From: Escherichia phage PhiR40_1
Sequence record: PV340560.1
Length of the DNA: 42,251 bases
Strand: one strand, 5' to 3'
Position numbers and translations under genes: made by a program. Positions 40,650 to 42,057 of the stretch are shown here, one piece after another. The notes under the pieces were generated by a model, which saw only the letters and a list, made by a program, of their open reading frames with translations, was not told the origin of the DNA and did not search any database. The number at the start of each line of letters is the position of its first letter. The stretch's first letter is position 1.

Positions 40650-40898
40650 TTAGTGAACAAACCACTCGTCAGCAGACTCCCAGGTATCTTTCAGAGTTTC
40701 CTGAACAAAAGTTTTAGCTGAATCTTTATCGGCGGTGCGCGTAACAGAAAGGCCATCGTTGCTGGTGGCTTTTACGATCACCTCTACATCGTCATAACGT
40801 TTACTGATGCGTCGGGTTAATTCTTCCTTTAACGCATCCACAGCACCGGTTGGCATTTTAGTCATTTTTTCTTTGGCTATGCAGATTTCAATACGCAT
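40650..40898 (-). CDS. dinI: DinI-like DNA damage-inducible protein
   Basis: 82 aa; MRIE...A.D.L..EL.RRI; C-terminal [14 protein letters not shown] matches DinI. Confidence 0.8.
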
Positions 40899-40911
40899 AA
40901 AAGTCCCTCTA

Positions 40912-40958
40912 TACTGTGTTTGTATACAGTGTTATTTTTAACTGTATGGATAAACAGT
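40912..40958. promoter_or_regulatory. Two LexA (SOS) boxes upstream of dinI (TACTGT-N8-ACAGT at 40912-40930; AACTGT-N8-ACAGT at 40941-40958)
   Basis: Both fit CTGT-N8-ACAG; 14-60 bp upstream of dinI start; second overlaps the int stop codon. Confidence 0.65.
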
Positions 40959-40959
40959 G

Positions 40960-42057
40960 TCAAGAGGTCTTATTTCTGCTCTTTTGGAGCTCTTCAAAAC
41001 GATTATGTAAAGATTTCGGATACAGTTCGGTATATACCTGCCATAGCACGTTTAATGAACGATGCCCTGTAACTTGGGCGACTTCCTCAATACTAAAACC
41101 AGCCTCAAATAAGCGACTTGCCCCTTCTCTACGCAAATCATGGTATCGCAGATCTTTAATACCTAATTTGCTTCTTACCCTCTGAAATCCCGCAGTAACA
41201 GAAGTGCTGTTATATGGAAAAATGAATTCCGATTTTTGGGGCTGTCGTTGGACGATATCCCAGGCTTCCCCAAGCAAGGCTACTTTCATGTGGTTGCCTT
41301 CCTTTTTGCGTGGATCTTTCCTGTCTCTTACGAGTATAGATTTTTGTTCCTGGTCGAGATCTTCCCATCGTAACCGGCATACTTCTCCGATTCGCATACA
41401 GGACCACACAGAAAATTTGAGGATATCAACGAACGGAATTTTTGAGCATTTATGTGTAGATCGTTGTTGAAGACCTTCAATGAGCATGTCCAGTTCATCA
41501 GATGCCGGTCTACGATTACGACGGTTTGATTTACCAATCAAACCAAGTTTAAGTAGATATGGACGAGCACTTTTCGCCGGGTTTGATGTGTAATTAATTC
41601 CGTATACAGGTTTGGCCGCATCCAGAACACTGCCAAGATAACTAACATCGTGGCTGACTGTTGCTGGACCTGCACCAGCGTTGTTTCTTAGCCTACAATG
41701 TTCAATTACGTCATTTTCTGTCAGTTCGGATAGTTTGATCGCGGAGATGTCACTATCCATAAGCAGTTCCAGCACATATCTTTTAGTACGACCTGCTTTA
41801 CCTCCGGCATTTGGGTCATTTAAATATTTGTGTAGTAAGTCACGGACTGTAAGTCCGTCAACTGCATTTGATGATGGAATGCCATATAGATCTAATTCCA
41901 TCACTTTCTGTGTACCCCATGTTTTGGCATGGGCATGTTTAGGGAATGTTTTGCTTTCCCTGTAAGTGATAACACCTTTTTCTTTGATAATCACATTACA
42001 GCGATAGCGTGGTGTGCCATCGGATTTTAGTCGTTTCTCTATGTTATAGTACGCCAT
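40960..42057 (-). CDS. int: Tyrosine integrase (phage integrase family), candidate dusA-specific
   Basis: 365 aa; C-terminal catalytic region (H.LRR...GHRS...Y); adjacent and divergent to a dusA 5' fragment. Confidence 0.9.
   Translation of the reverse strand: MAYYNIEKRLKSDGTPRYRCNVIIKEKGVITYRESKTFPKHAHAKTWGTQKVMELDLYGIPSSNAVDGLTVRDLLHKYLNDPNAGGKAGRTKRYVLELLMDSDISAIKLSELTENDVIEHCRLRNNAGAGPATVSHDVSYLGSVLDAAKPVYGINYTSNPAKSARPYLLKLGLIGKSNRRNRRPASDELDMLIEGLQQRSTHKCSKIPFVDILKFSVWSCMRIGEVCRLRWEDLDQEQKSILVRDRKDPRKKEGNHMKVALLGEAWDIVQRQPQKSEFIFPYNSTSVTAGFQRVRSKLGIKDLRYHDLRREGASRLFEAGFSIEEVAQVTGHRSLNVLWQVYTELYPKSLHNRFEELQKSRNKTS

Follow-up and report, generated by a model that had tools for sequence, protein, structure and literature searches.

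A DinI-like prophage cassette with twin predicted LexA operators and a structured 3′ element

Introduction

LexA-controlled dinI genes are textbook SOS genes. Here we describe a dinI-like gene of Escherichia phage PhiR40_1 (sequence record PV340560.1) that lies behind two predicted LexA operators and carries a structured element in its 3′ untranslated region (3′ UTR); the whole analysed stretch of 42,251 nucleotides (nt) is called the window throughout. The chromosomal dinI of E. coli shares with it the family, the fold and the RecA-contact residues, and both are monocistronic behind a promoter under LexA control, predicted in the case of the phage. The phage gene differs in its product (49% identity), in having two operators instead of one, in sitting on a mobile prophage cassette and in its 3′ UTR.

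The contacts between DinI and the RecA filament have been resolved by cryo-electron microscopy. L13, L21, W71, W77 and F78 of DinI form a pocket for RecA F203, while an acidic patch of E24, E69 and D76 faces RecA K232, R243 and K245; each of these eight DinI residues has been confirmed by mutation to contribute to filament binding (PMC9926225).

Several relatives of dinI have been described in prophages. In Salmonella, the dinI homologues of the prophages Gifsy-1, -2 and -3 head dinI-gfoA/gftA-irsA operons and their control by LexA is established (Lemire et al, 2011, PMC3121763); nalidixic acid induces them 4.6- to 23-fold (PMC8072944). Like these, the PhiR40_1 gene is a prophage dinI-family gene directly behind a LexA box. 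The Gifsy genes, however, belong to another clade (42.5% identity for Gifsy-1 DinI), have one box, lie in the early region, are followed by an antirepressor gene that drives induction, and occur in phages with non-cleavable repressors, whereas the PhiR40_1 gene stands alone at the tail-fibre end of a phage whose repressor is predicted to be cleavable. Tum of coliphage 186 (split in Fels-2 and PSP3) is also a LexA-controlled phage gene with a DinI-like module, which makes up its C-terminal half (PMC3121763), but its N-terminal antirepressor domain is absent from the PhiR40_1 protein. In Klebsiella pneumoniae, the LexA-controlled dinI mRNA carries a conserved extra 3′ element upstream of the terminator, and the regulatory RNA DinR is cut from this mRNA (PMC10907235). 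Finally, prophage MsgA-like proteins of the DinI family have LexA boxes upstream and the same 3′ element as the PhiR40_1 gene, yet are only 31% identical to its product. The idea that a phage DinI limits prophage induction is already in print (PMC8456039).

Results

The 82-residue product is a DinI-family protein

The product of the gene matched the entire DinI profile of Pfam (PF06183, positions 1–63 of 63) with 70.9 bits against a cut-off of 24.2, aligned over its full length with E. coli DinI (PDB 1GHH; 49% identity) and matched PHROG 189, "RecA filament binding protein DinI", at 5.7e-31. Its AlphaFold2 model (predicted local distance difference test score, 81) contains strands at residues 2–8, 39–45 and 49–53 and helices at 19–31 and 58–76. 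This arrangement, a three-stranded sheet against two helices with an amphipathic, acidic C-terminal helix, is that of the DinI fold. Foldseek superposed the model on 1GHH with a template modelling (TM) score of 0.79 and on RecA-bound DinI (7YWA chain A) with a score of 0.78, and returned nothing besides these two entries at E ≤ 0.001. According to the alignment, the eight RecA-contact positions are occupied by M15, L23, W73, W79, F80, E26, D71 and E78 in the phage protein, five of them identical to DinI and three conservatively replaced. The DinI homology that an earlier note had read from the letters of the window is borne out by these matches, and the product is a DinI-family member with intact RecA-contact residues.

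Two predicted LexA operators embedded in the core promoter

On the coding strand, the region upstream of the gene reads cTC TTGACA CTGTTTATCCATACAG TT AAAAAT AACA CTGTATACAAACACAG TATA GAGGG ACTTTT ATG (Table 1). The −35 hexamer is a perfect TTGACA that overlaps the stop codon of the integrase gene int (TGA, 40962..40960). The −10 hexamer AAAAAT (40939..40934) lies 18 nt past it, the proximal LexA box starts four nt after the −10, and transcription is predicted to start near 40927, inside this box. In a consensus promoter scan the dinI-like promoter matched 10 of 12 positions, and an identical promoter is annotated in the GenBank record of phage mEp460. Boxes of the CTGT-N8-ACAG type thus overlap both the spacer and the predicted start of the core promoter, which is the sequence hallmark of the LexA regulon.

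Cores of this type occurred five times in the window against 0.52 expected, a number reached by none of 100 shuffles. We scored candidate boxes with a heterology index (HI) matrix rebuilt from E. coli LexA sites, and the scores are approximate. The two promoter boxes scored about 3.8 and 5.8, which lies in the span covered by genuine SOS boxes of E. coli, and the best non-box 20-mer in the window scored 11.3. A CTGT-N8-ACAG match at 7595 was rejected as a LexA box, its approximate HI being 16. The earlier note had called the two promoter sites well-formed SOS boxes 14 and 60 nt from the ATG; the boxes stand, and the 19-mers it named lie at those distances. It erred in placing the second box over the int stop codon: the box ends at 40958/40959 and abuts the TGA, and the −35 hexamer is what overlaps it.

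The promoter design, together with the conservation described below, is consistent with direct repression by LexA. An indirect hint of damage induction comes from an array study, in which the dinI-like gene c0943, of this or another clade, changed together with sulA, umuD and recN (PMC2817434); the supplements of a ciprofloxacin transcriptome of enterohaemorrhagic E. coli held no entry for DinI-like genes.

Conservation of the predicted operators across diverged loci

We aligned the upstream regions of 13 diverged loci from six genera (Escherichia, Salmonella, Trabulsiella, Pantoea, Erwinia and Mixta), encoding proteins 56–100% identical to the phage protein. The sole invariant columns were TTGACACTG, CAG, TG, CAGT and ATG, corresponding to the −35 hexamer, the four LexA half-sites and the start codon, while the spacers within the LexA boxes and the −10 region varied freely. 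Most relatives have an A/T-rich, −10-like hexamer about 18 nt after TTGACA (Trabulsiella and locus L089 fit better at 17 or 19 nt), and a purine-rich block occupies the position of the GAGGG Shine-Dalgarno sequence. The invariant half-sites form a strong footprint, pointing to real operators, and this comparative evidence is the strongest test of the LexA boxes.

Among near-identical copies in IMG/VR, both cores were kept in all 22 upstream variants, which came from two unrelated flanking contexts. Twin boxes were found in 13 of the 19 members of the phage DinI-like clade; more distant dinI genes (41–51% identity, chromosomal ones included) have, with few exceptions, one box, at about 21 nt from the ATG. 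Across the clade, the distance between box centres ranges from 24 to 29 bp, which fits two independent blocks set by promoter geometry. A description of this conserved twin-operator design was not found in the literature; it is a refinement and not a new kind of system.

A self-contained mobile cassette at prophage ends

The gene belongs to a self-contained moron consisting of promoter, two LexA operators, the 82-residue DinI-family gene, structured 3′ UTR and terminator. The stretch that 133 phage records have in common starts at the −35 hexamer and extends to the 3′ hairpins and terminator (approximately 40576–40963 of the window). The cassette has its own transcription signals, sharp homology borders, a patchy presence and varied flanking contexts, as morons do; its G+C content does not set it apart. 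Of 5426 complete E. coli genomes, 1416 (about 26%) contain at least 80% of the cassette, with up to nine matching places per genome, a count that includes the remnant of the 3′ element downstream of ecpE described below. Phage carriers include VT1-Sakai, BP-4795, YYZ-2008, phage cdtI, P-EibC and many Stx1a, Stx2a and Stx2c phages, and all related phage records already annotate the gene as DinI-like. Elsewhere, the cassette sits at prophage ends, with no further phage element between it and host genes that differ from case to case, and it converges with the tail-fibre genes.

The window itself is a lambdoid prophage of the mEp460/PhiR47_1 type, 100% identical to PhiR47_1 over 40500–41100. It is integrated at dusA, the 5′ end of which forms the last 106 bases of the window; in strain AR_0085, an identical region places the integrase 89 nt from the dusA start codon. 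As the earlier note had it, the dinI-like gene lies between the integrase and the tail-fibre end (tail-fibre gene at 37900..39960, plus two small open reading frames, ORFs). The int gene lies upstream of it on the same strand, and no terminator separates the two. We consider this link incidental because the cassette elsewhere starts exactly at the −35 hexamer, beside host DNA and with no integrase nearby.

Beside prfC in Salmonella (loci L173–L176), some genomes carry a twin-operator dinI-like cassette with the same 3′ element. About 370 nt downstream of the cassette, these loci have a cloacin/pyocin-S-type bacteriocin gene and a small putative immunity gene.

Table 1 Features of the dinI-like cassette and its surroundings in the window.
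Feature	Position	Strand	Remarks
dinI-like coding sequence	40650..40898	-	82 aa, ATG start; Pfam DinI 1.1e-19, 1GHH E=3.7e-13, PHROG 189
Shine-Dalgarno GAGGG	40905..40909	-	6 nt upstream of ATG; read from the sequence
Proximal LexA box CACTGTATACAAACACAGTA	40912..40931 (core 40914-40929)	-	predicted; spans the predicted transcription start
-10 element TAAAAAT	40934..40940	-	AAAAAT at 18-nt or TAAAAA at 17-nt spacing; promoter scan
Distal LexA box CACTGTTTATCCATACAGTT	40940..40959 (core 40942-40957)	-	predicted; occupies the -35/-10 spacer
-35 hexamer TTGACA	40958..40963	-	overlaps the stop codon of int; marks the 5′ edge of the mobile cassette
3′ UTR element	40542..40652	-	two hairpins, SL1 and SL2
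SL1	stem 40623-40628 with 40584-40589; loop core 40596-40618	-	23-nt loop core
SL2/terminator	stem 40574-40583 with 40548-40557; U-tract 40536-40547	-	from the fold
Tyrosine integrase (int)	40960..42057	-	Pfam Phage_integrase; context, outside the cassette
dusA 5′ end (host/hybrid)	42146..42251	+	right prophage junction; RefSeq annotation of a 100% identical locus, ATG 42146

A structured element in the 3′ UTR

Downstream of the coding sequence, the 3′ UTR folds into two hairpins (−29.4 kcal/mol, z = −4.1), the terminator hairpin starting 66 nt past the stop codon. The loop of SL1 encloses CAUUCAAUACUCGCACUAUCGAA. Copies of the element were gathered from IMG/VR by a core pattern with two degenerate positions, which fixes 21 of 23 positions; the constancy of the loop core, unvaried in 26 distinct full-length cassettes collected in this way, is therefore partly by construction. 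In these 26 cassettes, the flanking 3′ UTR was variable at 13 of 34 sites, compared with 204 of 249 in the coding sequence. A covariance model scored the window element at 114.5 bits and found matches of 55–136 bits in 52 of the 59 sources searched. Because bulges upset an ungapped register analysis of SL2, we used a model-based alignment. In this alignment of 51 distinct copies, which was itself fitted to the covariance model, 93.2% of cells were paired compared with 29–44% in slid controls, and 16 of 26 pairs had changed on both sides, a level that none of 500 shuffles reached.

The element extends beyond the phage cassette. It lies 3′ of the MsgA-like dinI-family clade (MFVELVYDKRN...EEADMWLVSD; Pfam DinI, 75 bits), whose genes have one or two LexA boxes upstream, and about 44 orphan contexts carry it with neither a dinI gene nor a LexA box. 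Among the 5426 complete E. coli genomes, 5243 have a copy immediately downstream of ecpE and in the same orientation. Located in the ykgJ-ecpE spacer, where the ecp fimbrial operon ends, this copy (L003, 2468-2579) neighbours a decayed dinI pseudogene; relative to the phage cassette, the UTR shows about 94% identity and the coding remnant about 65–70%, and the promoter and LexA boxes are gone. Other paralogues in the clade of the phage protein carry unrelated 3′ UTRs, so protein and element are separable.

Known RNAs and coding sequences were considered as identities for the element. Rfam gave no match for the cassette or its 3′ element, either with the whole window at the gathering threshold or with 40400–41100 at E ≤ 1, and a full-text literature search for the loop core sequence gave none. 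Identity with DinR was ruled out, as the covariance model had no match in the Klebsiella dinI loci. EcsR2 (PMC4350180) was rejected as the chromosomal copy, being located in the adjacent yagU-ykgJ spacer and not in ykgJ-ecpE. An in-frame coding continuation after the dinI-like stop, LTRKIGNGWKSFNTRTIES, was dismissed on the grounds that third codon positions never vary and all changes are non-synonymous, as was an ORF of 33–40 residues on the opposite strand, which is interrupted by a stop in the window and elsewhere runs for 40 residues from a TTG. The element may be a regulatory RNA derived from the 3′ UTR, a protein-binding or stabilising 3′ end, or a site acting at the DNA level.

Opposite the element, RefSeq annotates a "capsid protein" pseudogene fragment (window 40573-40653, + strand; L004, 3014-3094), which is probably spurious. 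Several prophages contain weaker second matches to the element (25–44 bits) at 1–1.6 kb from the main copy: L228, 12255-12366; L207, 6924-7026; L192, 2965-3067; L252, 1393-1495; and L246, 1637-1722. These hint at a wider and more diverged element family.

Discussion

We lean towards regarding the locus as an SOS-controlled DinI-like cargo cassette that raises the threshold for, or delays, prophage induction and SOS mutagenesis. We infer LexA binding, induction by damage, RecA binding and the sign of the influence on prophage induction from the features above. In an undamaged lysogen, LexA dimers would sit on both operators, the one on the spacer blocking the binding of RNA polymerase and the other covering the start site, and with both occupied the gene would be kept tightly off. 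Upon DNA damage, active RecA would promote self-cleavage of LexA, the promoter would open and the small protein would accumulate. Like E. coli DinI, it would insert into the groove of the RecA filament, presumably through the hydrophobic pocket of M15, L23, W73, W79 and F80 and the acidic residues E26, D71 and E78. LexA, UmuD and lambda CI use features of the RecA groove that DinI also binds (PMC9926225). A raised dosage of the protein is therefore expected to compete with slow substrates such as UmuD and the phage's own repressor, and this competition would raise the threshold for, or delay, prophage induction, UmuD processing and SOS mutagenesis. The repressor in question (5901..6593) is a protein with helix-turn-helix (HTH) and S24 peptidase domains, probably of the RecA-cleavable type, so that a RecA modulator could in principle affect induction. 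The earlier note had proposed that an SOS-induced phage copy could damp or time repressor cleavage, and the features found here support this in part.

Several points weigh against this interpretation. The phage protein scored 73 bits with the NCBIfam DinI equivalog NF007893, for which the cut-off is 111; it is thus properly named "DinI-like", and the sequence does not establish equivalence with host DinI. Its net charge of about −2.4, compared with −5.4 for E. coli DinI, makes it less acidic. The −10 hexamer is weak (four of six matches, with an 18-nt spacer). Cooperative, in-phase binding of LexA to the two boxes appears unlikely because their centre spacing varies, and the reason for having two is explained only through promoter geometry. 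In work by Lusetti and colleagues from 2004, near-stoichiometric E. coli DinI is said to stabilise RecA filaments and not to block LexA cleavage, which makes the sign of the effect on induction uncertain. Moreover, non-polar deletion of the dinI homologues carried by Gifsy-1 and by Gifsy-3, the only phage homologues put to the test, did not significantly affect induction (PMC3121763).

Other explanations differ in what they take to be the cargo. The payload under selection may in part be RNA, with the SOS-induced transcript delivering the two-hairpin element as a regulatory or protein-binding RNA. This is possible, if doubtful. The low variability of the flanking 3′ UTR, the occurrence of the core in divergent contexts, the sharing of the element with MsgA-like genes and the decayed pseudogene beside ecpE, the double-changed pairs and the Klebsiella precedent of DinR cut from a dinI mRNA (PMC10907235) all speak for it. 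Nevertheless, the pair counts come from an alignment fitted to the model, many variants lack a U-tract after SL2, and the protein is maintained without the element in clade paralogues. An exact-complement k-mer scan of the window also yielded no target, complementarity of at least 11 nt being absent and the matches at chance level, and the element could be a mere stabiliser and terminator or a DNA-level site. A wider proposal, which we put forward tentatively and with similar reserve, is a bifunctional SOS module whose LexA-controlled mRNA gives both a RecA-binding protein and a conserved structured RNA of about 90–110 nt, made up of SL1 and SL2, acting in trans or binding a host factor. Such a module would be a prophage counterpart of DinR with a domesticated copy closing the ecp operon of nearly every E. 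coli, in a phage wired to LexA at several points beyond repressor cleavage (boxes at 6365-6384 and 14905-14924, described below).

It is also conceivable, though unlikely, that the cassette is lysogenic-conversion cargo benefiting the host, with extra DinI holding back the processing of UmuD, SOS mutagenesis or SOS toxicity (under quinolones, for instance) instead of timing phage induction. The position and architecture at the prophage end are typical of a moron, genomes can hold several matching places, and the lack of effect of the Gifsy dinI deletion on induction (PMC3121763) agrees with this view. In E. coli, gain of prophage DinI-like genes is statistically associated with later quinolone-resistance mutations (PMC10575684), though an association is no test of the gene. 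The host, moreover, has its own dinI, and host benefit does not exclude a brake on induction, since one biochemical act would serve both. We think it improbable that the protein instead promotes induction by stabilising RecA filaments and so sustaining repressor cleavage. DinI does lengthen and stabilise such filaments (PMC9926225), and the residues responsible are conserved in the phage protein; on the other hand, DinI takes groove features that lambda CI needs, so that direct competition is expected, and published commentary assumes inhibition (PMC8456039). Hardly credible, finally, is a role as the first gene of a Gifsy-type LexA-controlled antirepressor operon or as a Tum-like antirepressor fusion, for which the Gifsy operons and the DinI-like half of Tum (PMC3121763) are the models. 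This is already contradicted by the anatomy: no ORF lies between the stop codon (40650) and the terminator, a stretch taken up by the structured 3′ element, the protein is a DinI domain alone, and the repressor is of the S24 type, predicted to be cleavable.

By itself, the finding changes little: a very common prophage cargo gene combines every sequence feature expected of a RecA modulator under tight LexA repression. Roughly one in four complete E. coli genomes carries it, as do many Stx1, Stx2 and Cdt phages, and an exact operator and promoter map is now given for testing. If the protein brakes repressor cleavage, its copy number could influence the antibiotic induction of Shiga-toxin phages. 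The 3′ element, shared by two distant dinI clades and fixed in the E. coli core genome, and the LexA box in the cI of SfII/ST64B-type phages could matter more.

Other LexA boxes in the window

The best LexA box of the window, TACTGTTTTTACATACAGTA (6365-6384, approximate HI 2.4), falls within the coding sequence of the cI-like repressor, where it covers the TVCKNS codons of the linker that joins the HTH and S24 parts. The homologous cI genes of SfII, ST64B, Klebsiella phage 1 LV-2017 and Flotzy have retained it, the DNA identity of cI being 92.4% for SfII and 69–76% for the three more distant phages. Synonymous positions are conserved in the half-site codons, while spacer residues have changed. 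No promoter was detected beside this intragenic box, and no description of a cI-internal LexA box was found in the literature. A further box, TACTGTAAAAATAAACAGTG (14905-14924, approximate HI 5.0), overlaps codons 3–9 of an N6/N4 DNA methylase gene (14897..15949); the 150-nt spacer upstream of that gene holds no sigma-70-like promoter.

Elsewhere in the window, Rfam detected isrK (67 bits; 7852-7928) and C4 antisense RNA (83.6 bits; 7953-8040), both on the + strand within an ORF (7492..8643) with Ash and Rha/antirepressor-like domains. Their arrangement suggests an antirepressor control module beside cII, resembling either immI of P1 or IsrK of Gifsy.

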